From a virus: DNA of 64,000 bases. Below the pieces are notes generated by a model. The model saw nothing but the letters and a program-made list of their open reading frames with translations. It was not told the DNA's origin and did no database searches. Position numbers and translations under genes: made by a program. The stretch spans positions 52,295 to 116,294 of the IMG/VR virus record IMGVR_UViG_3300010353_000347; one strand, 5' to 3'. Numbering within the stretch: position 1 is the stretch's first letter; every line of letters starts with the position of its first letter. Shown here one piece after another: positions 27,119 through 58,132 of this stretch.

Positions 27119-29290
27119 TTAAATGACGCTCTCGTTCACCGTGGACTCAGACAAAGGGGCTCCCCTGTCTAACGACTCTGCCACCTGAAGCTGCCGGATC
27201 GCCGCTTGCTCGATCTCCGCGTCAATCGGGTCTTGCTTCCTACGGCCCTCTCCCAGCCTCTTGGACTCTACCGTGCCTGGGTACAGCCGGTCGTTGAACC
27301 CCTGGTGGAGAAGGTAGTTGGCAATGACGTAACCTGGGTGGTTGCTGTACGATAGTTGAACGTCTAGATCCATGTTGCGGCTCACGCTATCCGCTGCCGG
27401 GTGATGGTCGTAAGCTGTAACCTTCCCGTTCTCGTCGTGGAATATCTCTATCTGGTTCACAAGGAAAGGACCGCTGTTTCGGTGGTCAGAGAGAACCTGA
27501 TCCCAGAGAGCAACGAACGGTTCAAGGACGTTGGAGTCGTACTCGACATGGATGTACAGGTTACCAGACCAAGCATCGCCGTAAAAGTCGTAGGTTGCTC
27601 GGTTGGAGAAGTTCTGTGTGAACGGGAGTACGTCTGCAATCTTGACGGATGGGTCTTTGATTCTAACCGTAACCGAAGATCCGCCAGCGAAAGAGCTAGA
27701 GGTAACAGAAACCTGCGAGCTAGACAGGCCGAGTTCTGACTTCAGGGCTTGGCGCACTACCTTCGCCTCGGCGGAACCTTCCCGGATGTCTCGCTTACCC
27801 TCTACTACCTCTTTCGGGAGGAATATGAAATCCCTCGTGCCGCTGGTTGTCCTTTGTACGTTAACGATGTCCAATGGGACAGGACAGTTGTTCAAAACGT
27901 AGGACACAACCTCTTCGTTAGGGGTTGGCTCATCTTCGGCCCACACCATGTCGTCTGGCTCTGGATTCAGGATAAGCCAAACTCCCTCCTCCTGGTAGTT
28001 GTCAATCCACCAGTAGTAGGGGCCAAAAATATCTCTGGGTAGAGATTGGAACCACGAGTAGATTTTTTGCCTTCTATCGGAGGGAAACCACTCACGAATC
28101 TTTTTGGACTCGACGTAACGGATACCGTCCTTCGGTGGAATCAGGACAAACGAGGAGTCGTACACTCCGTCTACGAGCCCCCAAACCCCCGTTGTCCTGT
28201 TCTTATAGAGGGCGTAATCAGAATCATACCCGCTGTCCGGGTGGGCGTGGTAAAATACCTCGTCCCAATCCGCGAGACTACCCTCATTCTGGAAGTCCAT
28301 GTAGTCAATCGTCCACCCCAGACTTTTCAGGGCAGGAAAGAACTCTCTCTGTGACCACTCTCCGTCCCCAAGCAGGGGGGTAGGTAGGGATTGGAATACC
28401 TCTACGGGGTTCGGCTCCCTGTAGTAGTCCTCCGACCCAGGAATGAGGCTCTGATTCTGGTCTAGGGCGTCGTAAGCCTCTCGCACCTTTGACCGAGAAT
28501 GGGCGCGGATCATGTCGTACATGGAGTCCTGTGACTCCTCGAAATCGTCAAACCGCTCTTCGTCCTCCGCGTCCCGTATCCTACAGGACTCGCAAGAGTC
28601 GAAGCCAAAGTTATCTCTGCCGATTTCTGACCTACGAACGTAGTCACCACACGACTCGCACTTGGCGAACCTGGGGTCAGGGCGAACGATAAGGTACCCC
28701 TCGTCATCCCCCACTCCGCTATCAGGGTAGGAAATCTCGATAGTGACTTCACCACCACGGCTGACAGAAGAGCCCACTACCTCACGGCCTTGGCCCTCTG
28801 CACGAATAAGGTACCCGTCCAGCTTTAGCAGAACCTCGGACAGGGTTAGCTCGTCGGCAATGGAGTACCCCATACCGTTGTAGGCTTGGAAGTACATCTC
28901 AAAGATCCCGTTCTCGTCTACCTCACCTTGGTAGAAGGTGGGGAGTACCTGCCTGTAGGATGGGGACTCTTGGATGGACAAAGTTGCTTTAGAAGCCTTG
29001 CCCCTTTGGCGCATGGCGGGTGACCTTCCTTCTGTGTAAACATAAACCTTCTTGACTGTGGGGTCGTCTGTTGGAGCCGTAGATCCCCCCCAAGTGCCAC
29101 CAAGGCGTTGGACTAATCTCTCTTCCGACGGCCAATCCCCGGACAGTAACTTGACCAGCTTCTTTTCGATACTGCCACCCCGAGCTTTGGTCGGAAGTAT
29201 CTCCAGGGTGGCCCCGTCTAGCTCAAACGAAAAGTCGTAGTCGAAGTTGTCGCTCTCTCGCACGGCTTTGGCTCTCTTTGGCTTGCTCAC
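27119..29290 (-). CDS. Modular polyprotein (putative internal head protein)
   Basis: 723 aa; modules separated by KAVRES, SKVREA, ESKKIREW, EGKRDIREG, ESKRLGEG. Confidence 0.7.
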   Translation of the reverse strand: MSKPKRAKAVRESDNFDYDFSFELDGATLEILPTKARGGSIEKKLVKLLSGDWPSEERLVQRLGGTWGGSTAPTDDPTVKKVYVYTEGRSPAMRQRGKASKATLSIQESPSYRQVLPTFYQGEVDENGIFEMYFQAYNGMGYSIADELTLSEVLLKLDGYLIRAEGQGREVVGSSVSRGGEVTIEISYPDSGVGDDEGYLIVRPDPRFAKCESCGDYVRRSEIGRDNFGFDSCESCRIRDAEDEERFDDFEESQDSMYDMIRAHSRSKVREAYDALDQNQSLIPGSEDYYREPNPVEVFQSLPTPLLGDGEWSQREFFPALKSLGWTIDYMDFQNEGSLADWDEVFYHAHPDSGYDSDYALYKNRTTGVWGLVDGVYDSSFVLIPPKDGIRYVESKKIREWFPSDRRQKIYSWFQSLPRDIFGPYYWWIDNYQEEGVWLILNPEPDDMVWAEDEPTPNEEVVSYVLNNCPVPLDIVNVQRTTSGTRDFIFLPKEVVEGKRDIREGSAEAKVVRQALKSELGLSSSQVSVTSSSFAGGSSVTVRIKDPSVKIADVLPFTQNFSNRATYDFYGDAWSGNLYIHVEYDSNVLEPFVALWDQVLSDHRNSGPFLVNQIEIFHDENGKVTAYDHHPAADSVSRNMDLDVQLSYSNHPGYVIANYLLHQGFNDRLYPGTVESKRLGEGRRKQDPIDAEIEQAAIRQLQVAESLDRGAPLSESTVNESVI

Positions 29291-29299
29291 GGTAGACTC

Positions 29300-30499
29300 C
29301 TACTTAGACCGCTTAGAGCGGGGTTGACGCTTGCGGGACTCGGATACCCCCCTTTGCCCGGCAAAGAACGCAGCGATCATGATTTCCTTGTCCTCGTGGT
29401 AGTAGAGGTTCATTTCAGAAAGGAAGATGCCCGCAGAGGCATGGGGATTCAACGCGCCTAGCTCGTAAGAGTAAGCCACCAGGGCTTCGTACTCGTAGTC
29501 TAGAAACCCCTCCCTTTGGACGTAGGCTAGCGCATCCAGGGAGTAGGTGTCGCCTGGGTTGTCTGGCTCTACCCAACCGGAGCTTTCCCTCACCCTCTTG
29601 CGGGACTCTTTCACCACCTGAGAGGGCTTTAGGATAAGGGGACCCAGCAGGCTCTGCGGCCCGTCGGTAGTGATACTGAGGCCCTTGAACCCACCGAAGG
29701 GTTCCCCTACATGGAATACCGTGCCCGTCTCTCCCACGTTCCTACCTGACACTACGCGAACCCTGTCCCCAACTTCGAGACGGTTCCCGTTGTAGTCGAA
29801 CTGTGTCCCTTCTTTGATCCGCCTCTTGCGAGACTCACCCCGATAGTGGGGGGACTCATACTTGGCGCTTAGAATAGACATGGAAGTCTTATGGCCGGTC
29901 TCCAACTCGAACTCAGCCTCCGTCCACTCCCCATCCGCTCCCCACACGGTCAGGTACATCCCCTCGTCCCAACATTCCTTTGCGTAGTCCCAGAACAGGG
30001 CAACGGCTTCGACAAAGGATAGGTCGTCTAACGTAGCTGTGTTCCTACCATCCCGGTACAGCTTAAACGTGAAGGGACCTCCCATGTCGGGTTGCCAAGC
30101 ATCGAATACGTCACGCTGGATGTAGTCTGCGGTCTCTCGCCACGAGGACTCGTACTCGGACTCCCTCACCCTCTTGCCTTCAGCCTTGCGAGACTCTTTC
30201 ACCACTTGGGATGGCTTTAGGATGAGCGGGCCTAGTATGCTCTGTGGCCCGTCGCATTGGATACTGAGTCCTTTGAATCCACCGAAGGGCTCTCCTACGT
30301 GGAATACCGTGCCCGTCTCCCCCGTGTTCCTACCCGAGACTACGCGAACCCTGTCCCCAACTTCGAGACGGTTCCCGTTGTAGTCAAACTGTGTCCCCTC
30401 TTTAATCCTCTTCTTGCTGGATTCGGTGGGGCGGGAGTGACTTACCACCGCATCGGTGAACACGCTATGAACCTGTCCTGGGTTTGCCCGTCGCATCAT
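29300..30499 (-). CDS. Modular polyprotein with duplicated KOW-like module
   Basis: ATG 30499 with GAGGAG SD; ESSKKRIKEG, ESRKAEGKRVRES, ESRKRRIKEG, ESRKRVRES linkers. Confidence 0.7.
   Translation of the reverse strand: MMRRANPGQVHSVFTDAVVSHSRPTESSKKRIKEGTQFDYNGNRLEVGDRVRVVSGRNTGETGTVFHVGEPFGGFKGLSIQCDGPQSILGPLILKPSQVVKESRKAEGKRVRESEYESSWRETADYIQRDVFDAWQPDMGGPFTFKLYRDGRNTATLDDLSFVEAVALFWDYAKECWDEGMYLTVWGADGEWTEAEFELETGHKTSMSILSAKYESPHYRGESRKRRIKEGTQFDYNGNRLEVGDRVRVVSGRNVGETGTVFHVGEPFGGFKGLSITTDGPQSLLGPLILKPSQVVKESRKRVRESSGWVEPDNPGDTYSLDALAYVQREGFLDYEYEALVAYSYELGALNPHASAGIFLSEMNLYYHEDKEIMIAAFFAGQRGVSESRKRQPRSKRSK
29600..30424 (-). repeat. ~230-bp imperfect direct duplication (about 29600-29836 and 30190-30424)
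   Basis: Near-identical peptides EGTQFDYNGNRLEVGDRVRVVSGRN.GETGTVFHVGEPFGGFKGLSI..DGPQS.LGPLILKPSQVVKESRK. Confidence 0.9.
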
Positions 30500-30507
30500 A
30501 TTACTCC

Positions 30508-31137
30508 TCAGAGCCCCAACACCTGTGAGGCGATTTTGCATTCTGTTATGCGGTTGACCGTCTCCGCAGTCGCTTCCATGTTGTCCCGGAACGTGAGCGC
30601 AGCGTTCAAAGCGGCTTGGAGGTCTGCGTTGCCAGGATCGGCGTTCAAAGCGGCCTGTGCCGCGTCAATCGCTGATTCAGCCGCAGCGAGAGCGGAAGCA
30701 ATCATGTTGGCTAGGTACGGTGGGATAGTCAGCATGGAGAGCATCATTTCCATCTGAAACTGTGCCCAGAACTCGTCGCCAAGGATGCGGGTGGAGATTA
30801 GCTCCAGGATGAGGGCCTTGACCATCTCTGCCATATCGGAAATGTCGGCAATGAGGTCTCCCGCCGCCCCCATGCCAGGGAAGTTCTGCAAGTCCTCAGC
30901 GGCCATCCCAAGGGCGGCGGAGGCGATTTTCAGAATCAGTTGGTTGGCGATGTAGGTGGGAAGAGCTTGCGGGATCTGTGTAACAGCCGCAGCGAGAGCC
31001 GCAGCCGTTTGACCAATATCCGTTAGCTGTGTCTCTTCGAGCGCCGAGACTTGATCCTCCAAGCTCTTCAGTCTAGCCTGGAGGGCTTGCATCCCCCTGT
31101 TTAGTTCCCTCTGGCACGCTGTCTGATTCTCTCCCAT
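30508..31137 (-). CDS. Helical Ala/Leu-rich protein in baseplate hub cluster
   Basis: ATG 31137 with AGGAG SD; coiled-coil-like. Confidence 0.65.
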   Translation of the reverse strand: MGENQTACQRELNRGMQALQARLKSLEDQVSALEETQLTDIGQTAAALAAAVTQIPQALPTYIANQLILKIASAALGMAAEDLQNFPGMGAAGDLIADISDMAEMVKALILELISTRILGDEFWAQFQMEMMLSMLTIPPYLANMIASALAAAESAIDAAQAALNADPGNADLQAALNAALTFRDNMEATAETVNRITECKIASQVLGL

Positions 31138-31145
31138 CCCGTCTC

Positions 31146-33500
31146 CTAGGTCGTTACCTGCAAGATTTCGTCGGCCATGAGCCTCACTAGTAGCTCCGAA
31201 CGGACAAAGGCTTCGGCAGCGGAGGCGTGAATCCAACTCGCCCCGACTACCACAGCCTCCCCCATGTCACAACCAGCGGCCAATGCACCACCGTCAGCTA
31301 ATACTATGGGCGGGGAAGTGCATTTCGTGAAGAGGCCCCCCGAAGCGGTGAGAGTGGGGGCACCCGCGATCTCTACCTTGTGAACGGACAGCCCACTCCC
31401 CGTAGCTGTGAGGAGCCCCCCAATTTCACCCCGGAGAAACTGTAACACAGAATCCGTAATCACAACGTCTTTCGTCAGGTTGACTCGGGCGAAGTCCAAG
31501 AGGCTGTCCGTCGCCTCAGCCCCTCCCGTAACGTCGCAGTCAGACAGCTTGCAGGAGCTTTCGGCGTCCACGAGGATGTCCCCCGCCACTTCGGCGGATT
31601 GAACGGTAACGCTCGAAGCGTCCTCTGCAATGACCGCTCTGGGAGCCCCGATGAGTTCCCCAATAGCCTGTGCCACGACAACGGACTTCTTGGCTCCGAT
31701 TCCACCCTCCCCACCGCCTTCCCAACTGTCCACCGCAGAAGCCTCAGCGCGGGAGTGGTCATGGATCTTCAGCCCTACATCCCCCCCGAAGAGGCGGTCC
31801 AGGGTGTGGATTTGGGCCGTTGCCTTATTCTGTAGGTTGATCCCGGCTCCACCCCCCGTGATCCTCCCACACCGCTCGACCGTTAGCTGGCCTTTGGTGA
31901 CCCGGATCGCGTCTCCCTCTTCCGCGTGAACCCTGCCCACGTTAGAAAGCCGTACAACGCCCCCAGAGCCGCCAACCTGGATTCCCTCCCCGATGGTCGG
32001 GGATTCGATCTTTTCGACTGTACGGGCCACTACGCGGCTGCTAGGGGCATCTATCGCGTCCCCCTCCCATGCAACCACCCTCCCGCAGTTCGCAAGCTCT
32101 AAATCCGACCTTGACCCCAGGACGATCCCCCTCCCGTGCATCCCCAGGATCTCGTCTACGTCGGCACACCGGATGATGCTCTCGGAACCGGCCACGATCC
32201 CATCCCGGAGGAATCCCTGCACCGTGGTTACGTCTACGAGCGTAAGGTTCAACCTAGACCCGGCGATGATTCCAGAGTACTGGACTCCCTTGATGAGCGT
32301 GGACTTCTGGCAGGAAACGGTATTGCTGTCCCCGAGTAGGAACGCGGTGTGCTGCATCCCCTGAATGTCGTCTACGGACACGAAAAAGAAACTTGACCCG
32401 GAAGATGACGAGACTGCGTTTCCGGCTTGCCCCCGAAGCTGCGGGCAGGACGAGATATGGAAGGTGTCGTTTGTCCCCGCCTTGATCCCATCCCCTCCCA
32501 TGCCAATGATCCGGCTTGAAATGTTCCGAAGGGTAACAGAGCATCCCTGGTCGGTAGCGATCCCGTGGGAGGCGTTGGACAGAATCGTGGTTACGTCGGT
32601 GGCGGTGAGGACAGCCTCCCGGCTCATGCGGATCGCTTCCGCTCCATCCGATTGGATTTTGTCCCCCTTGGCCAGAGTGGCAGAGGCTTCCTGCTCGACT
32701 CGCACCGCTGCGTTCCCCTCCCCAACAACCTTGTCGAAGCGGTACACTTGGACGCTCGACTTGGTATCCGCAAAGACCGCTGTCTCGGGGCTTGTGAGGA
32801 TTGGGGTATTGGTAACCCGTACCTGTGCAGACTCCTCCGTTCGGATTGCCGCCCTCTGACCCAGCACAGGCTTTGGAATGGAAGTCAACAGGACTTCGGA
32901 GCCGTCCTTTGCATGGAGGGCGTACTGGTTCTCTCCCTGAAGCTCTCCCCCCATCATCTCGACACGGGACGTTCCAAAGGCTCGGATTCCGTCGTCTATG
33001 CCGATGATCTTGGAATTGCGGATGACCACAGAGGAGGAACTGTCCACCTCGACGGCACAGGGGAACCCGGCAGGGATCGTGTCGTCAATCAGGAGGGCTC
33101 GTGACCCCTCGACAACCTTGACACCCCAATCCCCGTTGACACCGGGCCGGTTGGTTTTCACGGCGTCAAGAGTTGACCCCTCCCGGAGAATGAACGAGTG
33201 GAGGTGGGTGCATTCCTTTTCCGTCGCCTTGACGGAAATGAACTCGACCGCCTCTTGGAAGGTGACACGATCCGCCGTGAACACCCCGTCGATCTGCTCT
33301 ACCTTACCGGAAACCTCTGACCGGCATACCACAACCGTAGAGTAGTTGTCAATCGTTAGCTTCCCGATCTTGCACTCCAGGAAGGTGACGGCACACCTTT
33401 CTGGCACAAAGGCGTCCCCGGACTCCCCAATGACTGTGATTGTCCGCTGAAACTTGCCCTCTTTGGAGAGGGACTTGTCAATGACGGATTGGCACGACAT
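31146..33500 (-). CDS. Right-handed beta-helix repeat protein (spike/tailspike-like)
   Basis: 784 aa of ~22-aa G/I/V/S repeats (I.G...DGI.AG....L.L..V..); follows gp5-like gene. Confidence 0.6.
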   Translation of the reverse strand: MSCQSVIDKSLSKEGKFQRTITVIGESGDAFVPERCAVTFLECKIGKLTIDNYSTVVVCRSEVSGKVEQIDGVFTADRVTFQEAVEFISVKATEKECTHLHSFILREGSTLDAVKTNRPGVNGDWGVKVVEGSRALLIDDTIPAGFPCAVEVDSSSSVVIRNSKIIGIDDGIRAFGTSRVEMMGGELQGENQYALHAKDGSEVLLTSIPKPVLGQRAAIRTEESAQVRVTNTPILTSPETAVFADTKSSVQVYRFDKVVGEGNAAVRVEQEASATLAKGDKIQSDGAEAIRMSREAVLTATDVTTILSNASHGIATDQGCSVTLRNISSRIIGMGGDGIKAGTNDTFHISSCPQLRGQAGNAVSSSSGSSFFFVSVDDIQGMQHTAFLLGDSNTVSCQKSTLIKGVQYSGIIAGSRLNLTLVDVTTVQGFLRDGIVAGSESIIRCADVDEILGMHGRGIVLGSRSDLELANCGRVVAWEGDAIDAPSSRVVARTVEKIESPTIGEGIQVGGSGGVVRLSNVGRVHAEEGDAIRVTKGQLTVERCGRITGGGAGINLQNKATAQIHTLDRLFGGDVGLKIHDHSRAEASAVDSWEGGGEGGIGAKKSVVVAQAIGELIGAPRAVIAEDASSVTVQSAEVAGDILVDAESSCKLSDCDVTGGAEATDSLLDFARVNLTKDVVITDSVLQFLRGEIGGLLTATGSGLSVHKVEIAGAPTLTASGGLFTKCTSPPIVLADGGALAAGCDMGEAVVVGASWIHASAAEAFVRSELLVRLMADEILQVTT

Positions 33501-33502
33501 AG

Positions 33503-34603
33503 CTACTCCCCTGCCCTTCCAATGACACGGCCAGAGACCAGAGCGTCACCATTCACCGCAAGATCCCCGTCAACGTGGACGTTCCCCCGGAGCATGATGA
33601 GGTTGGATAGGATGCTTAGGAATTCCGTGCTTAGGGACACGCCCCCCTGTGCCTTGACAGTCACTTGACCCGTCGCTGTCTCCACCTGAAGCCGGAAGGT
33701 TTCTTCCCCCTTGTAGACACCGGCAAAGTCAATGACTCCCAGGCCAGCGGCCAGAGTGAGCTTGACTTCGGATTTCTCTTCGGGGGGTGAGTCGAAGTCC
33801 CGTGCGTTCTGAGACACGATCTCTACGAACTCGGCATCCTTGCCTACGGACATTCGGAGCCTCTGCCCACTCGTTCCCACAAGCTCCAGGGTGGAGCCAC
33901 CCCCCTGTAAGTCGTCGTAGCCTACCCCGTCCCCGTCCCGTGCCTCTTTCCGAATCCTCTGTGCTTGGTTGTCGTCATTTTTTTCTTTTGTGACAGGGGC
34001 ATTCATGGTAAGCTGTTGACCCGCCCTGTCGATTACGTCAAGGGACTCAAACCCGTCCCTGTCCTCGACTATGAACGTATGCCCCTTGACGCTCTTCAGT
34101 AGCACCCGCACCGTAGGGTCGTGGTAGGGTACGGCCCCGATCTCTGAGGGCACCTCCGGGCCAATAGGCTGGAACCAGTACCCCGCCGTAATCGGGAACC
34201 TGTCCCGATCCGGTATGAGGTTACCGTCCTCTTTGTCTACCTTGAAGTTGATCGCTCTCGGCTGAGTCGGATTCTTGAACCACCCCCCGAAGTAGAGAGG
34301 TTGCTCAGGGTCGCCAGCCATGAAGGTGACAAAAACTGTCGTACCCGTGGGAGGCACGTTGAAGCTTCCTACGTCGTAGGCTCCCCCCATAGAGTGGATC
34401 GGGAGCGCCCACGGGAGGTCTTTCGTTTTGATACTCTTCTCTGTCTGGTGGAAGAGGGGAACACGAACCTTGACCCTCCCGATATGCAGGGGGTCTAGGT
34501 TGTACTCGACAACCCCCGGATACGTCCCGTAAATCCTGTTGCGGACGGTGGTTTCTTCTCGTGAGGAGGGGGTAGCGGTAAACTGTGACGGTAGGTTAGG
34601 CAT
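33503..34603 (-). CDS. Baseplate central spike, gp5/VgrG OB-fold
   Basis: YPGVVEYNLDPLHIGRVKVRVP...LPWALP...PPTGTTVFVTFMAGDPEQPLYFGG; C-terminal GNVHVDGDLAVNG beta repeats. Confidence 0.88.
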   Translation of the reverse strand: MPNLPSQFTATPSSREETTVRNRIYGTYPGVVEYNLDPLHIGRVKVRVPLFHQTEKSIKTKDLPWALPIHSMGGAYDVGSFNVPPTGTTVFVTFMAGDPEQPLYFGGWFKNPTQPRAINFKVDKEDGNLIPDRDRFPITAGYWFQPIGPEVPSEIGAVPYHDPTVRVLLKSVKGHTFIVEDRDGFESLDVIDRAGQQLTMNAPVTKEKNDDNQAQRIRKEARDGDGVGYDDLQGGGSTLELVGTSGQRLRMSVGKDAEFVEIVSQNARDFDSPPEEKSEVKLTLAAGLGVIDFAGVYKGEETFRLQVETATGQVTVKAQGGVSLSTEFLSILSNLIMLRGNVHVDGDLAVNGDALVSGRVIGRAGE

Positions 34604-35840: not shown

Positions 35841-35841
35841 G

Positions 35842-47950: not shown

Positions 47951-47975
47951 CGTCCGCTGCAACGAGTGGTTAGGT
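47921..47975. other. attC site 1 (permuted, extrahelical base on right arm)
   Basis: CCTAAC...TTCAGCGG...CCGCTGCAA...GTTAGGT. Confidence 0.85.
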
Positions 47976-47998
47976 CTCATAAAACTGAAGGAGGAAGC

Positions 47999-48970
47999 AT
48001 GAAAAGAAAGACGCAGACATTGTTCAATCAGAATCACACGGTCGCCGATGTGTTCAACCAATCGGAATCTATTGTCGTGTACCCCGGCGATTGCCTCGAC
48101 CTCTTAAAATCAATACCGGATGAGACACTCCAACTTGTTGTCACTTCACCCCCTTACAACATCGGCAAAGAATACGAGAAGAAACTTCATCTCGATGTGT
48201 ACTTACAACAGCAAGCCCAGGTCATCGCCGAGTGTGTCCGTGCCTTGTCCCCCAAGGGCAGCATTTGTTGGCAGGTCGGCAACTACGTTGACAGGGGAGC
48301 CATCATACCTTTGGACACCGTGTTATATCCCATTTTCGCAGACTTTGGTCTTCGGATGCGGAATCGCATCATCTGGCACTTTGAGCATGGACTACACTGT
48401 AGCCGCCGATTTTCTGGCCGCTACGAAACAATAATCTGGTTCACAAAGTCGGATGAGTACGTCTTCAATCTCGACCCAGTGCGCATCCCACAGAAATACC
48501 CCGGGAAAAAGTATTTCAAAGGCCCGAAAGCCGGCCAGTATTCGTGCAACCCACTTGGCAAGAATCCCGGAGACCTGTGGGTAATTCCGAACGTAAAAAG
48601 CAATCATGTCGAAAAGACCGAACACCCGTGTCAGTTCCCCGTTGAGCTGATTGAGCGATTGGTGCTTTCCCTCACCAATGAAGGGGATTGGGTGCTAGAT
48701 CCTTTCCTTGGAACGGGCACGTCGATTATCGCCGCTATCCGTCATGGACGCCGGGGTGTTGGGGCCGAGACTGTAGCGAAGTATGTAGAGCTTGCACGAC
48801 AGAGAATCCAGCAGGAAATGGACGGCACATTGCGAACCCGGCCTATGGCCAGGCCAGTTTATGACCCTGTGGAAGCCGGAAACAGCCTTACAATAGCTCC
48901 TTGGGATAAGAAGGAATCCAAGCAAATGAGGTTACTTGAAAAAAGAGCAAAGTATGGAAAGGAACACTGA
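47999..48970 (+). CDS. Type II DNA methyltransferase (beta class, probably N4-C)
   Basis: TSPPYN motif IV, HPCQFPVELIERLV, VLDPFLGTGT motif I; GGAGG SD. Confidence 0.92.
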   Translation: MKRKTQTLFNQNHTVADVFNQSESIVVYPGDCLDLLKSIPDETLQLVVTSPPYNIGKEYEKKLHLDVYLQQQAQVIAECVRALSPKGSICWQVGNYVDRGAIIPLDTVLYPIFADFGLRMRNRIIWHFEHGLHCSRRFSGRYETIIWFTKSDEYVFNLDPVRIPQKYPGKKYFKGPKAGQYSCNPLGKNPGDLWVIPNVKSNHVEKTEHPCQFPVELIERLVLSLTNEGDWVLDPFLGTGTSIIAAIRHGRRGVGAETVAKYVELARQRIQQEMDGTLRTRPMARPVYDPVEAGNSLTIAPWDKKESKQMRLLEKRAKYGKEH

Positions 48971-49581
48971 TGAATATCTCTGAGACATATTCCCATTTGA
49001 ACGGGCTTGAATTCCTTTTAGTTCACAAGCCAAACCTTTGGAAAGAAATACAAGCTGTCATTGCTGCGGTGGATGCCAATAAATGTCGAACGAAAGTATC
49101 CAAAGAAAAAACGATGAAGGGCAAGCTTCTATTTAGTCCCATCGACATGAATTCTGAATTCAATCGTCTGCTTCGGGAACAATCTTGGGACGAAAGCCGA
49201 GTGAGCTATTGGGTTACCAAAAGCGAAAAGTTGATTCGGAAAACGCTTACGATGCCTGCGGAAGAGCAAAAACGGGAGATTGAGGCAGCTGGCGAAACAC
49301 CTATTTTTAGCTATAACCAGACTGATTTTGTCAAAGATCGGGTGGCCGTTGAGGTTCAGTTTGGAAAGTATGCTTTTGTCGCATATGACCTTTTCGTCAA
49401 ACATCTCGCGTTCTATGTTGGTGATCGAATAGACGTAGGAATTGAAATTCTTCCAATGAAATCCCTTCAAAGCCAGATGAGTTCCGGTGTCGCTTACTAT
49501 GAGGGCGAGTTCTATAACGTAGTTCGTCAAGGGCGCGGTGTGCCAGCAGTCCCACTCGTGCTTATTGGTATTGAACCTTGA
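48970..49581 (+). CDS. Type II restriction endonuclease, BglII/BstYI family
   Basis: NQTDFVKDRVAVEVQFGKYAFVAYDLFVKH...IDVGIEILP...MSSGVAYYEGE (D...E-x-Q active site). Confidence 0.88.
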   Translation: MNISETYSHLNGLEFLLVHKPNLWKEIQAVIAAVDANKCRTKVSKEKTMKGKLLFSPIDMNSEFNRLLREQSWDESRVSYWVTKSEKLIRKTLTMPAEEQKREIEAAGETPIFSYNQTDFVKDRVAVEVQFGKYAFVAYDLFVKHLAFYVGDRIDVGIEILPMKSLQSQMSSGVAYYEGEFYNVVRQGRGVPAVPLVLIGIEP

Positions 49582-49649: not shown

Positions 49650-49664
49650 GGCGAAGGAGAAAAG

Positions 49665-49931: not shown

Positions 49932-49956
49932 CGAGGACTGAGGGCCAAACGGACTA

Positions 49957-49979
49957 GAGGCAGGGCAACCCCCTGCCTC
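49957..49979 (+). terminator. GC-rich hairpin, possible terminator
   Basis: GAGGCAGGG-loop-CCCTGCCTC; weak T-tract. Confidence 0.4.
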
Positions 49980-50027
49980 GTCTCTTATCGTGTCACAGCG
50001 GCCCGATATGAGGGCGGAGAGGGGAAC

Positions 50028-51469: not shown

Positions 51470-51470
51470 G

Positions 51471-51725
51471 CTAAATCTCCGATACGATGAGTCTGATTAG
51501 GAATGCTTTGCGCTGCAACTCGACACCCTCCTCGTCGGTGAGGATCGCGTCCACCACGAATCCCTCCGGGTGAGGCTCAGGTGGGGTGTACGAAAGGAAA
51601 CCACCGGGAACCCCCATAGCCTCCGCCAAGTCGATAGCGGGCAGCGTGAGGAAGTCTCCAGCGAAAATCGTAGAAAGGGCGTTCTCTGCTAGGTCGGCAG
51701 ATACAGGCAACCAATCGAGGGGCAT
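51471..51725 (-). CDS. Hypothetical protein
   Basis: ATG 51725, AGGAGG SD, promoter TTGACT-N17-TAGCTT at 51745-51773. Confidence 0.6.
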   Translation of the reverse strand: MPLDWLPVSADLAENALSTIFAGDFLTLPAIDLAEAMGVPGGFLSYTPPEPHPEGFVVDAILTDEEGVELQRKAFLIRLIVSEI

Positions 51726-51784
51726 ACGCACCTCCTGTCGATACAAGCTATCACGAAATGTAAGGAAAGTCAAGGGGGGAGGGA

Positions 51785-51805
51785 AGGGGGGCTTTCGCCC
51801 CCCTC
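51785..51805 (-). terminator. Hairpin terminator after tail tube gene
   Basis: AGGGGGG-CGAAAG-CCCCCCT. Confidence 0.55.
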
Positions 51806-51812
51806 TTGCTAC

Positions 51813-52316
51813 TTAGCCCTGGAAGAAGTAGCGGTCGAATACGAGGGCTAGGGTAAGCTGCACTACGCCGGACTGCGAGTAGGACAGGTTAGAGGCTGTC
51901 AGGTTAGACGGCCACACACCCTCTAGCTTGTACGTCCTGGGTGAGGTTCCGTCGGGTGCCAGTAGGCGGAGGAACGCTTGCTTCTTGTAGTCCCTTGCCC
52001 AACCGATTGCTCCTGTCTCTGCGTTGTACACGAGCTTGCGCCACGACTCTAACGCCTGTGCGATACCCTCGTCTACGAAGTCCTTGACCACGAGAGAACC
52101 ACCCTGAGCGGATGCCCTACCAGCGACCTTCCGATCCTCGCCCATGTAAGCAATGTTGATCGTGTTGTTCTGCATGGACGGGACGAACATCTGCTCGACT
52201 GCGAGACGGACGTTCTCTGCATTCGGAACGCCGACGAGGACTACCTCAAAGTCAAACGCTCTCTGAGGCTCGAACCCTCCCCCTTGTGGGGCAAGATGCT
52301 GTGCTGTGATTGCCAT
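51813..52316 (-). CDS. Tail tube protein (gp19-like)
   Basis: FEPQRAFDFEV...YMGEDRKVAGRA...WRKLVYNAETG...YKKQAFLRLLAPDG...LEGVWPS..NLSYS. Confidence 0.9.
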   Translation of the reverse strand: MAITAQHLAPQGGGFEPQRAFDFEVVLVGVPNAENVRLAVEQMFVPSMQNNTINIAYMGEDRKVAGRASAQGGSLVVKDFVDEGIAQALESWRKLVYNAETGAIGWARDYKKQAFLRLLAPDGTSPRTYKLEGVWPSNLTASNLSYSQSGVVQLTLALVFDRYFFQG

Positions 52317-52382
52317 TCTGTTCTCCTATTCCAAAGCCTCTTTGTGAGGCGGTGTTACAGTAAAGCCTTCAACCCGGTGTAG

Positions 52383-53351
52383 TTACCGCGAGCGTCGTGA
52401 CTCGTCGTAAATAACCCTAGCTGCCTTTAGTCTGCTCCCGGACAAAAGGTCGAGTGTCCCATCTTCACGCCGCATATAGTACGTCTGGTCCGTACCGCCG
52501 AAGTCAACGAAGTTTTCTACTTTGCCCCTGACCGTTACACCCCTGGCATCCTCGTACTCCCACCACGGACCTGACTCTTTCAGGCTACGGGCCTTGGGGC
52601 GCTTGGACTCCACCCGGCGCATGGGAGTTTTCGCTGAGTCCGGTAAGAAGTACCCCGTCTCGATCTTTGCCTCCATCTGCGCGATGGCATCCTCGTCGGA
52701 CGGCAGTTGGCCAAGAAACCCTCCAGCATCGGGGCTTGTGTACCCGTACCCGTAGTCATCCCGGTACAGAACTACCCAATGCTTGCCTGTCTTAGACTCC
52801 CACTTCGCCACTACCCTGCCATTCTCCAGACTCTCGTACATGCCTTCCCGTAGCTTGCGCTTGGGCTTACGAGACTTGGATTCCATACGGAGTGCCCTGT
52901 GCGCCACCTCGTCGGCAAAAGCGTGCAGCCAAGGGGACTCAGACGGGTAGACCTTTAGTGCATCTTCCACGGTGTACAGGAGGCTATCCGGGTCGTGGAT
53001 TTTCAACGCCTCGTAGGCAGCAGTGGACGGTTCGTAGTTCGTGTTTATGAAAGCCCCAAGGTAATCCACCATCGTAGCCTCTGGGCCAATATGCACGGGA
53101 ACCCGAGACCCCTGCACTAGCTCTTCTCTCAGCATCTTCTTGCCCTTGGGCTTGGCGGACTCGTCAACGGGGGGCCAGTAGTAGATCGGAACACCCTCTG
53201 CGGTCCAACCCGTTAGGTACCTCTTCGCACCGCACTTGTTACAGATGAAGATAGTGGGGTTGTAAGTACGTTGAAAGATAACCCGGTCAAAGTGTTCCGG
53301 TGCCCCACGGAACCTTCGTACCCAAGTCAGTAAAGTCGGCGGGTAAGCCAC
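52383..53351 (-). CDS. Modular polyprotein (probably fused to 53287..53466 by +1 frameshift)
   Basis: Linkers ESAKPKGKKMLREE, ESKSRKPKRKLREG, ESKRPKARSLKES; ends DESRRSR. Confidence 0.7.
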   Translation of the reverse strand: MAYPPTLLTWVRRFRGAPEHFDRVIFQRTYNPTIFICNKCGAKRYLTGWTAEGVPIYYWPPVDESAKPKGKKMLREELVQGSRVPVHIGPEATMVDYLGAFINTNYEPSTAAYEALKIHDPDSLLYTVEDALKVYPSESPWLHAFADEVAHRALRMESKSRKPKRKLREGMYESLENGRVVAKWESKTGKHWVVLYRDDYGYGYTSPDAGGFLGQLPSDEDAIAQMEAKIETGYFLPDSAKTPMRRVESKRPKARSLKESGPWWEYEDARGVTVRGKVENFVDFGGTDQTYYMRREDGTLDLLSGSRLKAARVIYDESRRSR

Positions 53352-53466
53352 AGTTTGGGCATTCCTTCGTGTACTCGTAGTCCCAGCCCACTTCCTCTAA
53401 CAACGTCCCTCGCTGATTCTGCACAGCGGAAACGAAATCTTCTCGTAGCTTACCTAGTGGTCTCAT
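53287..53466 (-). CDS. 59-aa leader ORF ending at CTT-TGA-C
   Basis: ATGA-coupled to upstream stop; MRPLGKLRED...ECPNCG...WGTGTL*. Confidence 0.65.
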   Translation of the reverse strand: MRPLGKLREDFVSAVQNQRGTLLEEVGWDYEYTKECPNCGLPADFTDLGTKVPWGTGTL

Positions 53467-53681
53467 CGCTCGCTCCCCGACACTTGCCTCACAAGGGCAA
53501 GAATGTTTTCTGCATCCTGCCCGACGATTCCAACGGATTCAGCCCAACGGCGAAAGTCCTCTTCGTGATCCTCTGGATTCTCGAACCAAAGGATGTCGAA
53601 GTCGGGGAAGGCCGTCTTAAACGTGCTAGCCTTCCCCCCTACTCCGACGCTCGAAATGGAGGTATCCTCTCTGAGAGCCAT
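53463..53681 (-). CDS. Hypothetical protein
   Basis: MALREDTS..., SD supplied by upstream AAGAGGAAG. Confidence 0.6.
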   Translation of the reverse strand: MALREDTSISSVGVGGKASTFKTAFPDFDILWFENPEDHEEDFRRWAESVGIVGQDAENILALVRQVSGSER

Positions 53682-53682
53682 G

Positions 53683-55107
53683 TTACTTCCTCTTCCTCTT
53701 CTTGGACTCCGAGAGAGACAGTAGCATATCCGCAATCTCGTCCCAAGTTCCTGAGAACCCAGGTAGGTTGCCACCGTAGGAAGTGTTGTCAACGGGGAAG
53801 TCCTCTATCCACAACCTATCGTCCCCGTCATAGTCCCCAAGCGTCCAAACATTGTAGGTTGCCCCTCGCCAACTCACTCGTGCGTAAGGGCCTTGGTACT
53901 TATCAAACCCGTGGACAGATAGGAATTGGAACTCAGGAACTTCCGCAGAGATACCAAGCACAGCCGCTTGCAGGGCATCCATCCAGGCACGATCTTCCTC
54001 GTCACCCGACCACTCTCCCGTTTCTTTCAGGCTGCGCTTAGACTTTTTGGACTCCAAGTAGTCATCGTAGGGGGAATGCTCTGTGCCGGGAGGCGGATGT
54101 ACCCAGTTCCTCTCACCGTACTCGTCTGTGCCCATGTAGACACCACAGTTTGTGCTGCTGCCACGGTCTCGCCAAACGTCTCCATCCTCATCGTACTCTA
54201 TGTCCTGCCCGCACAGCGCACAAACCTCATGCTGCCCGTCAAAAGGCTCAGACTCGTACTCGTACTCTTTCAGATTGCGCTTAGACTTTTTGGACTCCAA
54301 TTGGATGCAAGCCGTGTTCTTCCCCGTCTTATAGCGTGCCCCAGTTACGTCGTCTGTGTACCAGCCGCCGTTGCTCTGTTTGGTAAATGTTACGGAGTCG
54401 GTTTCCCTAAACTTAAACCTACCCCCAACCGGGATATAGTCGAAGATGGTGGATTGTCCGCTACCCGTTACCAAGTCCGCCCACGCAGAAGCCTCCATGC
54501 CCGACTCCGTAACCGCCCGCAACCCTCTACGCTTTGGCTTTTTGGCCTCGTTGAACCTGTTAGAAGAGATACCCTGCTGCATGGAGTTGTAGAGTTCTCC
54601 TGTCAGCACCCTGCCGAAAAACCCGTTGAACATCTCCTCTGCTAGGCTCTCGTCCCCCCCAAGGGATACAGAGAAGAAGCCGCACCAGTACGCACCGGCA
54701 TCTCTCGGCATTGGGACAAACATAGCCTCGTCTTTGTACGGAAGAACCCCAGCGGTTATCTGTACCTGGAGGCAAAAGTCCTCCCAGTAGGCTAGATCCC
54801 AAACCCCGTAGTCTCTGAGGTGCCGCCCAAAGTCGTAGACTGACTCGGGAACAATGTCCGAGGGCTCTTCCCGCAACCTTCTACGCTGAGACGGCTTGCG
54901 CCGATTGGACTCGTCATTCTCGGAAAGGACTTTCCGCTGTGACGGGGATACGAACTCCCGTGCCACCGGCTTTGATGGCTCGTACATGACGCCCAAACGA
55001 CCACGGATGGGGTAACCCTCGACTCGCCCACTACTGTCCGTTTTCCCTTTCGAGATGGCGGCAGTCGTAGCGAAGAATGAATCTCTTACGTTCTCTCTCG
55101 GGGACAT
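53683..55107 (-). CDS. Modular polyprotein
   Basis: Linkers ESNRRKPSQRRRLREE, EAKKPKRRGLRAVTES, ESKKSKRNLKEY, ESKKSKRSLKET; ends ESKKRKRK. Confidence 0.75.
   Translation of the reverse strand: MSPRENVRDSFFATTAAISKGKTDSSGRVEGYPIRGRLGVMYEPSKPVAREFVSPSQRKVLSENDESNRRKPSQRRRLREEPSDIVPESVYDFGRHLRDYGVWDLAYWEDFCLQVQITAGVLPYKDEAMFVPMPRDAGAYWCGFFSVSLGGDESLAEEMFNGFFGRVLTGELYNSMQQGISSNRFNEAKKPKRRGLRAVTESGMEASAWADLVTGSGQSTIFDYIPVGGRFKFRETDSVTFTKQSNGGWYTDDVTGARYKTGKNTACIQLESKKSKRNLKEYEYESEPFDGQHEVCALCGQDIEYDEDGDVWRDRGSSTNCGVYMGTDEYGERNWVHPPPGTEHSPYDDYLESKKSKRSLKETGEWSGDEEDRAWMDALQAAVLGISAEVPEFQFLSVHGFDKYQGPYARVSWRGATYNVWTLGDYDGDDRLWIEDFPVDNTSYGGNLPGFSGTWDEIADMLLSLSESKKRKRK
54024..54300. repeat. 34-bp direct repeats (32/34 identical) flanking one protein module
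   Basis: ctttcagNNtgcgcttagactttttggactccaa at 54024-54057 and 54267-54300. Confidence 0.9.
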
Positions 55108-55109
55108 AG

Positions 55110-55691
55110 TCACTTCCTCTTCCGGGACTCGTCAAAGTCCTCTTCGTCGCCGTACATATCCGCTAGGTCGGCCTGAGCCTCTTCCGCTGAGTCGTAGATC
55201 GCCCAAGGTATGGAGTCAAGGTAACCTGGGGCCTGATACCTACCAATCCAGCCTGTCACCTCTCGGAACGATAGGGGGTCACCCTCGCAGTAGTCACGAA
55301 GCTGCTGAATGTCGGTGACAGCCCCTACTACGTCCACAGGGATGATCTCTGTACCGTGAGTGGTGTCCACTTCGTAGGCTGTGCCGTAGTAAATCTCAGG
55401 CTCCATGAAGCCTTCCTTAACGACACGCTTCCGGGAACGCTTGGATTCCTCGATCACGTTTTCAACAGGAACCCCACCGATAACACGGCCAATGTTGGTT
55501 TCTACGCTCACACGAGTTCCCGAATCGTTAATGTAGAACAGGGTTCCGATAAACACTTCGCCCGTATCAGGGTGCGAAATAGTTATAGTGTCCCCCAGGG
55601 CTACTTCGGAACCGCTGGGTAGCGTAGCCTTGTAGAGACCATCCTCGCTATCCCACTCCCTCAGCTTCGCACGGCGAAAGGGTGGCGCTTC
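55110..55691 (-). CDS. Modular protein lacking its own start (open in -1 frame of upstream gene)
   Basis: Frame open from 55691: ...FRRAKLREWDSEDGLYKATLPSG...HPDTGEVFIG; first GTG (55556) has no clear SD. Confidence 0.6.
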   Translation of the reverse strand, partial: EAPPFRRAKLREWDSEDGLYKATLPSGSEVALGDTITISHPDTGEVFIGTLFYINDSGTRVSVETNIGRVIGGVPVENVIEESKRSRKRVVKEGFMEPEIYYGTAYEVDTTHGTEIIPVDVVGAVTDIQQLRDYCEGDPLSFREVTGWIGRYQAPGYLDSIPWAIYDSAEEAQADLADMYGDEEDFDESRKRK

Positions 55692-58132
55692 TCACCCTCC
55701 CGTACTCTCTTGGACTCTCCGAAGAGGCCACCCTTGCGCTTTAGATCCTCGTGGGGAACGACAAGAGACTGACCGTTGCCGAAGGCTACGGCGTACAGGT
55801 AACCGTCACCGTGGGGGAACTGCTGGACGATCTTTCCGTCACCATAAGCACCCTCAGAGCCGAAGTAGGTTACGTCCTCTCCAATCTGATACTGCGGATC
55901 GGCTGTATCCTTCGCGTCTACCTTTTCCTTAACGGCGAAAGGGCGACGGCGGCGGGCCTCCTTAGCCTCGCCTGACTTGTCTCGGAGGTCTTTCTTCTCG
56001 TCCTCTTCCTCCTCGATTTCCTCGTCGTCCTCTTCCTCTAGCTCGTCCTCTTCGTCGTCCTGCTCACGGATCTTGCGGGACTTCCGGCGGAGAGCTTCCA
56101 TGCGACGGCGGAGGCGACGACGGGACTCTTCCTTCTTGTCCTTGTCCTCTTCGTCGTCATCTTCCTCCTCGATTTCCTCGTCGTCCTCTTCCTCTAGCTC
56201 TTCGTCATCTTCGTCGTCCTCTTCACGAAGTTTTCGAGCCTTGGCACGGAGACGGGACTCTTCCTTCTTGTCCTCACCCTCTTCGTCGTCCTCTTCCTCT
56301 AGCTCGTCATCTTCGTCGTCATCCTGCTCGCGGATCTTACGTGCTAGCCTACGACGGCGGGACTCTTCCTTGTCCTTCTTCTTTAGGAAGTCGGGCTTGT
56401 CGTCACCCTTATCCTCGTCGTCCTCTTCCTCTAGCTCTTCGTCACCCTCTTCGTCCTCTTCCTTCAGGAACTTGTCGAGAACGGACTTGGCTTGCTTGCG
56501 GTACTTCTCAGCAAACGAGAGGTTGCCACCGTCGGTAGGAGCGGACTTCGCCTTCTTCTCGGCGTCACCCGGCTCATCGCCAGCTACGGTCGGGTCAGGA
56601 GTCGTGAAAGCGGTGTCCTCTGCCTCACCCTCTTCACCCTTGGACTTGGTTCCTGTGGTCGGGAAGGAAGCATCCGCCGAGGCAGGAATAACCTCCTCTT
56701 CCCGCAGACTGTTTAGGTAGGCGGCGACTGCGGCTTGCGCGTTCTTGCCCCGTGCTACCTGCTCGATTAGGTCTCTAACTGTCAGCTTCATAGCGGTTGC
56801 TCCTCTTTTAGTGCTAAAGGACTTTCCTGAATTTGTTGACTCCCGTACATAACCACTAGTACAGAAGTTAAGTGACTCCCTATCGGAACCGAACAGAATC
56901 AACCCAAGACGTTTTATCTCACCGATTACAACGTCCGCGATACGCATACGGGAAGCGTTATCGGTGTAACTGCCTTCCGGTGGAAGTACCGAAAGTACCA
57001 AATCCCCATCCCACATCCTGATTTTAACCTCTATGTTTGGGTCAATCGAAGCGAGCGTGTGACGGACTTCGGCGGCTATGGAATCTAAGAAGGAGTCGGA
57101 TGATTCCTCTCTGTACACTCGGGTTGACTCCATTTTTGAAAGTGCCTTCTCTTGGCACCTTGAACAGCGATTCGTGATGCCGTCTGCGTACTCAGTTACC
57201 TGCATGAATCGGTTACAGCCCTCACAACGGCGATGGTTTCCTTCGGTGACGGATTCGTACCCCATCCAAGCACTCCGGTTCTCAAAGTCCCGATCCAAGT
57301 TTGTGTCGGGATCATACTCCTCACCACGCTCGTAGGGCGGAGGAGTATCTTCTTTACAGGAGAAGCACACCGGGCCGTATTCATAGGTGTTCGGGATTTC
57401 CCCTGTGAGAACGTAGAACTTCTGCCCTGCGGCTTCCCAAGGTGTACCACAAGAGATGCAAGCAACGTCTGGGTCTACGGGAGTGAACCCGGAGTATTCT
57501 CTCGCCTCTAGGGTGGACCCCCCTAGCTCTGACCAACCAGAATTGGAAGCCAGACTTTCGGAAACCCTCTTGGATTCAGCAAGATCAACGTCGTAGCTGC
57601 CGCACTTGGGGCACTTGGGGCTCATGCTCCCCGACTTGAAAACCTTACCACACTCCTGACACTTGACTTTCATGGATGCGCTCTCTTCCACACTAACCGA
57701 GGTTTCCTGTGCTACTGGCCACGGCACAATGATCTCCTCTTCGGCAAACGTCCCCTTACCTAAAGCCTCGCTGTAGGAGAGGATTTCGGAAACCGGGATG
57801 CGAAGCTGCCACAACCCGCCCCTGCTCGCTCGCCGTGCAACCCCACGATCTAAAGTGAGACTCACAGTATTCGTGAACCCCTCACTCCCTGTTAGGCCAC
57901 GGTAAGCTGTTACCTCTTCCCCGTACACCCGCCGTAGAAGCTCTTGTGACCGCCTAGCTACCTCTTGTCTCACCGCTTGGACATCCTCCACCCTGACAGT
58001 ATCCAAGTCAAGAGCGGTGGCAATCGCGTCAAGCGGATCGTCCTCGTAGAGGGCATGAACTAGGTCAGACGCGACCCCGGAATCCAGAATCATGCTTAGG
58101 ATTTCGGAGGATCGGGTGCCTGTGACGATCAT
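55661..58132 (-). CDS. Polyprotein: ART-like (R-S-E) domain + Zn fingers + acidic scaffold/core-like region
   Basis: TAYRG...VSLT...AEEEIIV; CQEC/CPKC, CISC/CFSC, CEGC/CSRC; internal ATG 56791 with AGAGGAG SD (MKLTVRDLIEQ) then EEDDEE/ESRRRR repeats. Confidence 0.7.
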   Translation of the reverse strand: MIVTGTRSSEILSMILDSGVASDLVHALYEDDPLDAIATALDLDTVRVEDVQAVRQEVARRSQELLRRVYGEEVTAYRGLTGSEGFTNTVSLTLDRGVARRASRGGLWQLRIPVSEILSYSEALGKGTFAEEEIIVPWPVAQETSVSVEESASMKVKCQECGKVFKSGSMSPKCPKCGSYDVDLAESKRVSESLASNSGWSELGGSTLEAREYSGFTPVDPDVACISCGTPWEAAGQKFYVLTGEIPNTYEYGPVCFSCKEDTPPPYERGEEYDPDTNLDRDFENRSAWMGYESVTEGNHRRCEGCNRFMQVTEYADGITNRCSRCQEKALSKMESTRVYREESSDSFLDSIAAEVRHTLASIDPNIEVKIRMWDGDLVLSVLPPEGSYTDNASRMRIADVVIGEIKRLGLILFGSDRESLNFCTSGYVRESTNSGKSFSTKRGATAMKLTVRDLIEQVARGKNAQAAVAAYLNSLREEEVIPASADASFPTTGTKSKGEEGEAEDTAFTTPDPTVAGDEPGDAEKKAKSAPTDGGNLSFAEKYRKQAKSVLDKFLKEEDEEGDEELEEEDDEDKGDDKPDFLKKKDKEESRRRRLARKIREQDDDEDDELEEEDDEEGEDKKEESRLRAKARKLREEDDEDDEELEEEDDEEIEEEDDDEEDKDKKEESRRRLRRRMEALRRKSRKIREQDDEEDELEEEDDEEIEEEEDEKKDLRDKSGEAKEARRRRPFAVKEKVDAKDTADPQYQIGEDVTYFGSEGAYGDGKIVQQFPHGDGYLYAVAFGNGQSLVVPHEDLKRKGGLFGESKRVREGEKRHPFAVRS
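55977..56470 (-). repeat. Coding low-complexity tandem repeats (acidic blocks alternating with basic linkers)
   Basis: Repeated ELEEEDDEE and ESRRRR...KIREQDD units. Confidence 0.85.

Follow-up and report, generated by a model that had tools for sequence, protein, structure and literature searches.

Recombining modules joined by a recurring basic linker in polyproteins of an uncultured T4-type phage, putative cargo of the phage head

Six minus-strand genes in a 64,000-nucleotide stretch of the virus record IMGVR_UViG_3300010353_000347 encode polyproteins in which small modules are joined by a recurring basic linker. This stretch, the window, covers bases 52295–116294 of a linear record of 132,356 bp (CheckV completeness 89%, 56% G+C), and positions refer to the window unless stated otherwise. 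The linker was scanned with a strict pattern, E-[SAG]-(1–16 residues, at least two and at least 40% of them K/R)-[VILM]-[RKSTV]-E, in the 191 open reading frames (ORFs; 42,242 residues) of the whole genome. The scan yields 19 matches, equal to 18 nonoverlapping linkers, compared with 0.62 ± 0.76 matches in within-protein shuffles (maximum 4 in 1000 shuffles). All strict linkers lie in the six genes 27119–29290, 29300–30541, 52383–53351, 53683–55113, 55110–55556, and 55661–58189 (all minus strand), which comprise 2,924 of the 42,242 residues (7% of the proteome). The recurring linker that a sequence-only reading of the window had proposed for six or more genes is therefore real. A looser pattern (E-S, then at least three K/R within the next six residues) also captures four C-terminal gene tails and two neighbors, 25499–26227 and 26642–26992, which hold partial ES-basic motifs only.

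The same reading had treated 27119–58132 as one system. This span does cover the linker genes, but they form two separate islands with ordinary tail genes between them. Island A (25499–30541) follows the spike and β-helix genes, and island B (52383–58189) separates the sheath gene from the tube gene, which are normally neighbors. The 22 kb in between hold ordinary spike, baseplate, tape-measure, and tube genes as well as a plus-strand island. Both islands sit within the late tail operon.

Island B begins directly downstream of the tail sheath gene with an 842-residue polyprotein (55661–58189, minus strand). Its N-terminal region is followed by zinc-ribbon modules (weak HypA and Zn-ribbon matches), a part in which acidic E/D-rich blocks alternate with basic linkers, and a small β module at the C terminus; the linkers lie at 57557–57577, 56327–56365, 56222–56260, 56063–56098, and 55697–55717 (minus strand). 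A 148-residue ORF (55110–55556, minus strand; 55110–55691 with an open −1 frame upstream) contains two modules joined by the linker 55413–55448 and terminates with DESRKRK-stop. The 476-residue polyprotein (53683–55113, minus strand) is composed of a constant 63-residue N-terminal leader and the modules A, B, C (a zinc ribbon), and D, with linkers at 54868–54912, 54505–54549, 54265–54297, and 54022–54054 (minus strand) and the C terminus SESKKRKRK-stop. A 59-residue ORF (53287–53466, minus strand) has MRPLGKLRE as its leader and encodes the front half of a zinc finger. The 322-residue polyprotein (52383–53351, minus strand), directly upstream of the tube gene, holds a zinc-finger half and the modules G, H, and I; its linkers lie at 53124–53162, 52845–52883, and 52575–52610 (minus strand), and its C terminus is DESRRSR-stop.

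Island A contains two polyproteins. The 413-residue protein (29300–30541, minus strand), encoded downstream of the spike and β-helix genes, is arranged as KOW, unknown module, duplicate KOW, unknown module (KOW 9.9e-09, KOW4_SPT5 8.1e-12), with linkers at 30398–30424, 30161–30196, 29810–29836, and 29585–29608 (minus strand) and an ES-basic tail. The 723-residue protein (27119–29290, minus strand) starts with the leader MSKPKRAKAVRE and holds the modules a to e; it has a strict linker at 28091–28111 and further [VIL]-R-E junctions (KVRE, DIRE) outside the strict pattern. Three small accessory genes share the island (25499–26992, minus strand): a 116-residue gene (26642–26992, minus strand), a 141-residue ParB-like gene with the leader ...FRKLIE (26224–26649, minus strand), and a 242-residue gene with the leader MKMKKRGLKE and an internal SESKKPKR (25499–26227, minus strand). 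The ParB-like motifs of the 141-residue protein are LKPTQ and ILDGHHG, and the domain stands alone behind its leader, which ends in ...KLIE. This protein matches PHROGs of very large phage proteins (phrog_2859, 2e-18; phrog_11358, 3431 positions).

The linkers are 6–14 residues long (counted from S to E) and carry a net charge of +1 to +6. At the closing end, P3 is Leu in seven, Val in six, and Ile in five of the 18 linkers, a position at which the pattern itself demands a hydrophobic residue. P2 is Arg or Lys in 16 of 18 linkers, P1 is always Glu, and the residue after this Glu is mostly Gly, Ser, or Glu. The opening E|S is preceded by a mixed P3 (Arg four times, Val three, Tyr, Phe, and Lys twice each, and others). 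By manual count, a closing triplet follows within 14 residues at 15 of the 18 internal ES-basic sites. Gene ends carry parts of the same motif, as had been pointed out before: four genes end ES-basic (those of the 413-, 322-, 476-, and 148-residue proteins), and M-basic-[VL]-[RK]-E opens three ORFs (MSKPKRAKAVRE, MKMKKRGLKE, and MRPLGKLRE). Gene borders resemble linkers split by a stop and a start codon, with ...ES-KKRKRK-stop at the end of one gene and M-x-LRE at the start of the next. In the DNA, 14 of 16 ES linkers encode their Ser by TCC and the remaining two by TCT, compared with 31% TCC genome-wide, and two linkers of the 476-residue gene have 22 identical bases in common. From this codon bias and this identity, the linkers appear related by descent or homogenized and not solely convergent.

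The modules have a median length of ~107 residues. They are mostly unrelated to each other, as had been claimed, the exception being the two near-identical KOW modules of the 413-residue protein. KOW (twice, in this protein) and zinc ribbons are the only Pfam matches in the polyproteins. An exhaustive profile search with the 322-residue protein retrieves 342 proteins at E ≤0.001, and most of the matches listed are 60–90 residues long. They cover residues ~179–247 or ~260–317, which correspond to modules H and I, and their edges coincide with linker edges. H and I thus have hundreds of free-standing relatives and are also found within other long proteins. These free-standing relatives and the agreement of match and linker boundaries mark the modules, at the level of sequence, as autonomous units. 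Module D is the only part of the 476-residue protein with a confident fold model (AlphaFold without alignment, predicted local distance difference test score [pLDDT] ~90), and no convincing structural relative of it was found among 48,161 PDB chains (best Z 5.7) or in BFVD. The rest of this protein scores below 50 without an alignment, and the model says little about linker disorder. Protein-atlas look-ups of module A, of an HExxH protein encoded near island A, and of P0017, a free-standing relative of module H, gave weak leads only.

Strains were compared on contigs whose tube protein is 100% identical to that of the window. The gene of the 476-residue protein reads leader-A-B-C-D in the window, leader-A-A-D in L018, leader-E-F-D in L023 and L025 (L024 encodes the identical protein), leader-E-F-B in L026, and leader-M'-C in L022. 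The 63-residue leader is unchanged in all five arrangements. The gene of the 322-residue protein reads zinc finger (ZnF)-G-H-I in the window, ZnF-J-K with a tandem hybrid linker in L018, ZnF-J-K with a fused linker, built from the front half of one linker and the back half of a second, in L023, and ZnF-J-G-L-M-K in L022. L023 additionally has one extra module between two linkers near the C terminus of the 842-residue gene. In L040, a more distant relative, a 915-residue protein has the module order a, b, e, c in place of a, b, c, d, e in the window, and the separate 116-residue gene of the window is fused at the polyprotein N terminus.

Contigs from other studies that align to the window point to the same joints. 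One of them skips 243 nucleotides in frame (54022->54266), which is exactly module C plus one linker; the joint shares eight bases and lies between two near-identical linkers. A second skip removes 561 nucleotides net (in frame) and a third 378 nucleotides net (module A). At six joints, 12 of 12 endpoints fall in, or at most 11 nucleotides from, a linker or an ES-basic tail, although three of the six have short flanks or unknown inserts and are weak evidence. Sequencing runs other than the source, from ten studies, hold 45–68% of the words of the locus, which fits a constant backbone with variable cassettes.

Cassette shuffling at the linkers is thus demonstrated: co-circulating strains gain, lose, duplicate, and reorder modules at these sites. 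The linker as unit of domain shuffling and the expandable cassette system, both proposed by the sequence-only reading, are borne out by strains of identical tube protein that differ in their modules, by the hybrid and fused linkers at the junctions, and by the skips of single cassettes. A module order fixed across relatives, which would have spoken against them, was looked for; the order varies. As the same linker recurs between all modules, its DNA (~30 nucleotides) works as an in-frame recombination joint. The predicted cargo repertoire differs between closely related phages, which have the identical tube protein and unlike module content.

An intragenomic silent cassette store, as in antigenic variation, was considered and rejected. 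None of the foreign modules has a copy anywhere else in the genome, so that the module pool is pan-genomic. Assembly artefacts are likewise rejected as the sole cause, as the variable modules are novel sequences. The contigs L023–L025 come from three runs and encode an identical 373-residue protein in the same gene order, and the two that were translated, L023 and L025, have the same module arrangement.

Two gene borders in island B differ in frame between strains. The 842-residue gene ends with ...KRHPFAVRS-stop (55660–55700, minus strand), and the −1 frame is open into the 148-residue ORF, with no start codon for ~45 codons. In the zero frame, C CCT TTC forms a correctly phased slippery heptamer (X XXY YYZ), at which a −1 slip would yield ...PFRRAKLRE and one more module. 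In L026 (3195–3290), where the region of the 148-residue ORF is joined in frame to the 842-residue gene, one extra A (GCGCCAACCC) is present, and the gene encodes the slip product except for one residue (Gln for His). A contig of run X14 likewise has a single additional base at this position. The frameshifted form is retained in the window, in L018, in L023 (aligned), and in L025 (same stop). Either a programmed −1 frameshift or an indel that is tolerated accounts for the junction. Upstream of the tube, the gene is split in the window into the 59-residue ORF (53287–53466) and the 322-residue frame (52383–53396), and in L018, L022, and L023 this gene runs through without interruption. In a contig of run X4, 14 additional bases behind 53301 bring both parts into one frame. 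The simplest reading is a 14-nucleotide deletion or an assembly error in the window and not a prfB-type programmed +1 shift.

Judging from its genes, the phage is an uncultured, distant T4-type myovirus. The sheath gene (58206–60443) shows 30–46% identity with annotated sheaths of SPO1-like and T4-like phages, and the tail tube protein (51813–52316) has a weak Phage_T4_gp19 match that was scored on the identical L018 protein. T4-like tail genes are present for gp15, gp19, gp25, and gp51, accompanied by a T4_baseplate protein, Baseplate_J, a spike OB domain, and a tape-measure protein with an SLT domain. The runs that hold this DNA are from activated sludge, wastewater, and anaerobic digesters. 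All are represented by metagenome contigs, and no listed run is recorded as RNA (two low-share runs are guessed to be RNA). In the plus-strand stretch 47966–49581, a DNA methyltransferase-like gene and a 203-residue gene lie beside a DUF6573 gene, with a G+C content of 0.50 compared with 0.56. The syntenic contigs L018 and L023 hold only small ORFs after the DUF6573 gene, and the methyltransferase insert therefore seems strain-specific.

The genome encodes a head protease that could act on the linkers. Peptidase_S77 (PF03420) matches with E 1.5e-22 and 76 bits (cut-off 27) at genome positions 120070–120525 (minus strand). The gene (genome positions 119284–120579) encodes a 431-residue protease-scaffold fusion and adjoins the capsid gene; the match lies ~3.8 kb past the window end. 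An HK97-type S78 protease (PF04586) has no match in the genome. The capsid protein is of the gp23 type, with residues 71–131 aligning to residues 95–154 of T4 gp23 (E 2.5e-07). Its RVNE (residue 14) and LLLE (residue 47), candidate cleavage sites, precede the equivalent of the mature N terminus in T4. T4 gp21 cuts after L/I-x-E (PMC9026906), and in T4 a 10-residue capsid-targeting leader loads variable internal proteins into the head (PMC9026906, PMC3012670, PMC12373910). Related giant-phage proteases cut after S/A-x-E, and the SPN3US enzyme prefers Ser at P1' (PMC10052503, PMC9026906). The linker end [LVI]-[RK]-E fits the T4 rule.

Similar triplets terminate leaders elsewhere in the operon. 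Leaders ending in [VIL]-x-E are found on the 723-, 242-, and 59-residue ORFs, and the 476-, 413-, and 842-residue proteins are without a clear one. Among the baseplate genes (7374–26649, minus strand), at least eight accessory genes (starts at 7763, 10059, 19493, 21227, 21940, 22698, 23570, and 26649) have a short leader that closes with [VIL]-x-E and in most cases continues with Ser, as in MKFKKLVSAVLTE|S, MRFSRLTE|S, and, on a zeta-toxin-like kinase, MRVQKSSFYLLVE|S; the accessory gene 20382–21227 has a Zeta_toxin Pfam match (3.6e-07). By their leaders, these genes look like single-module counterparts of the polyproteins.

The comparison with distant phages separates the two parts of the linker. 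The 476-residue protein has no tblastn match in 50,697 cultured phage records, and IMG/VR scans with this protein, the tube protein, and the exact 22-nucleotide linker DNA returned only the phage's own record. The ES-basic linker was also sought in sheath relatives (L001–L016, IMG/VR, ~40% sheath identity), which do not carry it, and this linker form is hence specific to the lineage of this phage. Module D recurs in AT-rich phages (25–41% G+C), where it is always preceded by LNE, LIE, LRE, or LDE in proteins with further ...LNE junctions and a common leader ending in KLNE. Peptidase S77 is encoded in eight of ten AT-rich module D records, including all three complete ones, and the two without it are fragments of 15–19% completeness. 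The junctions of L040 are GLTE, DLKE, GLKE, and LLKE, and P0097, a 1422-residue protein with module I on a contig with T4-like replication genes, has the linker KEET[VLM]xE. Across deep divergence it is, in these sequences, L-x-E and not the basic run that persists at the junctions. In P0016 and P0023, modules H/I occur in long proteins with Asn-Pro and Arg/Lys-rich linkers that do not end in Glu, which may point to another processing rule.

The AT-rich module D phages (L027–L032, L042–L046 = IMG/VR record G001; P0005–P0011) share a conserved leader, MKK..KQRLFEVM.RLDKTFKPKLNE. In G001, a related leader with a different ending also heads a P-loop kinase-like protein. By analogy, the leader of these phages resembles a capsid-targeting sequence common to unrelated cargo proteins.

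On balance, we consider it probable that the polyproteins are head-loaded cargo and substrates of the head protease, and that their linker DNA serves as the recombination joint. Late-expressed chains of small autonomous modules (~60–110 residues each) would enter the prohead, guided by the constant N-terminal leader and/or the basic linkers. The gp21-type S77 protease would cut behind the closing [L/V/I]-[R/K]-E of every linker and perhaps a second time at the opening E|S. Once freed, the modules would be injected along with the DNA and act early, as accessory or counter-defence proteins. The K/R-rich stretch would keep the cut site accessible and may tether the pieces to DNA. Cleavage, double cleavage, head location, and injection are what we infer from these patterns. 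Of the processing put forward by the sequence-only reading, cleavage by the head protease finds circumstantial support in the S77 gene, the closing end of the linker, and the persistence of L-x-E. The double cut that would release free basic peptides is possible but conjectural, because the opening E|S has a heterogeneous P3 and misfits the protease rule. A single cut that leaves a C-terminal basic tail on each module is an equally good reading and would also explain terminal modules that end ES-basic-stop.

Several observations weigh against head loading and cleavage. Inside the modules, [VIL]-x-E shows no depletion (1.58 per 100 residues compared with 1.67 expected), so that the triplet alone cannot define cutting. 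The opening E|S lacks a consistent hydrophobic P3, which the T4 rule requires. The polyprotein genes are located in the tail/baseplate part of the operon and not beside the head genes, and the N terminus of the 476-residue protein (M-x-x-P-R-E) is not a canonical leader. S77 is common in large myoviruses, and its co-occurrence with module D in eight of ten records may reflect this abundance. Some of the architectures derive from short-read assemblies, which can be chimeric at repeats; single ones such as A-A-D of L018 could be chimeric, yet three runs agree on the arrangement of L023–L025.

The first two of these points equally suit an alternative in which the polyproteins stay uncleaved. They would then be multidomain proteins of the polyvalent type, with the basic stretch as a flexible, exposed, and perhaps nucleic-acid-binding spacer whose repetition matters solely by permitting in-frame recombination. 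Polyvalent phage proteins with 2–15 unrelated domains do exist in late operons (PMC5512222), and the linker regions in the AlphaFold model, predicted with no alignment, are of low confidence and mostly without regular structure. Uncleaved proteins, however, leave unexplained why [LVI]-[RK]-E invariably ends the linker, why L-x-E persists over the basic character in distant lineages, why genes start with one half-linker and end with the other half, and why leaders of the same type occur on single-domain neighbors. We regard this alternative as unlikely, albeit the best of the competitors.

Another enzyme could process the linkers, either a phage zincin-like metallopeptidase or a host protease that recognizes basic or dibasic sites. 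Trypsin-like and dibasic-specific proteases classically cut at runs of K/R. Six ORFs in the genome contain HExxH, one of which (23572–24522) lies ~1 kb downstream of island A and encodes a 316-residue protein with weak atlas leads to LPD23 and zincin families; polyvalent proteins, too, use embedded MPTase domains (PMC5512222). The 316-residue protein has no Pfam or PHROG match, and its atlas scores remain below the level of more than a lead. Moreover, such an enzyme would not explain the invariant terminal Glu, the Leu, Val, or Ile at P3, or the distant lineages that keep L-x-E without basic runs, which makes it decidedly improbable. In the 316-residue protein (minus strand), the HExxH is part of FIHEAVHAMDD and the atlas look-alikes are phage proteins; it is possibly an alternative processing enzyme or itself cargo.

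The genomic position of the polyprotein genes, which break the sheath-tube pair and follow the spike and β-helix genes, would suit cargo carried in the tail, either in the tube lumen or at the baseplate, like the payloads of contractile injection systems. None of the known tail-loading signals was recognized in them, and the motifs of junctions and leaders match the rule of the head protease. Other leader-bearing accessory genes are also interspersed among the baseplate genes of the operon, from which the position seems to reflect late co-expression and not the assembly site. Tail-borne cargo is therefore very unlikely. A reading of the K/R runs as nuclear-localization signals is dismissed, as nothing ties the phage to a eukaryotic host.

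If the polyproteins are indeed processed head cargo, many injected accessory proteins would be loaded and exchanged with one signal. A wider proposal, that T4-type phages commonly carry cargo polyproteins in which one peptide is protease site, address or DNA-binding tag, and universal recombination joint, is tentative and falls somewhat short of probable. Under this proposal, any small protein flanked by the joint could become virion-delivered cargo that is traded between strains, and the K/R run would possibly be released as basic counter-ion peptides. It would amount to a natural plug-and-play arming of virions, unrecognized since cultured model phages encode internal proteins separately. 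The sequence rule of a lineage-specific linker plus [VIL]-x-E may serve to predict virion cargo among unannotated small phage proteins, and the modules form a pool of candidate counter-defence proteins against bacterial defences. For engineering, the polyproteins would offer a natural design for multi-cargo packaging, like vectors based on the T4 capsid-targeting sequence (CTS) but multiplexed. In evolutionary terms, a protein processing site, as predicted here, would double as a DNA recombination joint.

A full-text literature search found no description of polyproteins delimited by prohead-protease sites. Polymorphic toxin loci, such as those with the VENN motif of CdiA, share the constant N terminus, the junction motif, and the variable cassettes exchanged between strains. 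They differ in belonging to bacterial secretion systems, in having a single terminal cassette, and in lacking a link to a head protease. A second point of comparison are the polyvalent proteins described by Iyer, Burroughs, Anand, de Souza, and Aravind in 2017, for which co-delivery with DNA and release by proteolysis have been proposed (PMC5512222). They likewise combine several unrelated domains in one polypeptide and are encoded among late or virion genes. Unlike them, the proteins of this phage have no embedded peptidase and none of the signature domains (LPDs, ArdC-N, DdrB-ParB, and others), with KOW and zinc ribbons as the only matches. They consist of small modules of unknown families with one uniform linker, and the predicted protease acts in trans.

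In phiKZ (gp175), SPN3US (gp245), and 201phi2-1, gp21-related proteases cut head proteins, among them inner-body and ejection proteins, repeatedly after the Glu of a three-residue motif (PMC10052503, PMC9026906). The P1' Ser of SPN3US resembles the E|S found here. Their motif is S/A-x-E, whereas the closing P3 of the linker is Leu, Val, or Ile and not Ser or Ala. In addition, their cuts mainly remove long propeptides from paralogues, whereas unrelated modules would be separated here. Homology to proteins of cultured phages, including phiKZ-like ones, was not detected by tblastn, a search made with the 476-residue polyprotein only.

The closest known system is the T4 internal-protein/capsid-targeting-sequence/gp21 system. 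Both have a protease of the gp21 family and a gp23-type capsid, and some ORFs of this phage begin with short leaders ending in [LIV]-x-E that may have a targeting role. Like IPI, IPII, IPIII, and Alt of T4, the predicted cargo is variable between relatives, expressed late, and presumed to have an anti-defence role after injection (PMC9026906, PMC3012670, PMC12373910). The modules show no sequence similarity to the T4 internal proteins, which are separate genes with their own leader each, whereas here the modules are concatenated in one polypeptide. The linker that recurs inside the polyproteins, with its K/R-rich core and conserved E-S opening, doubles as a recombination joint and sets them further apart from T4. 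If the predicted processing holds, the T4 internal-protein paradigm would be extended from single genes to recombining polyproteins. Particular to this phage are the ES-(K/R) form of the linker and the evidence for cassette exchange at strain level across multiple studies.

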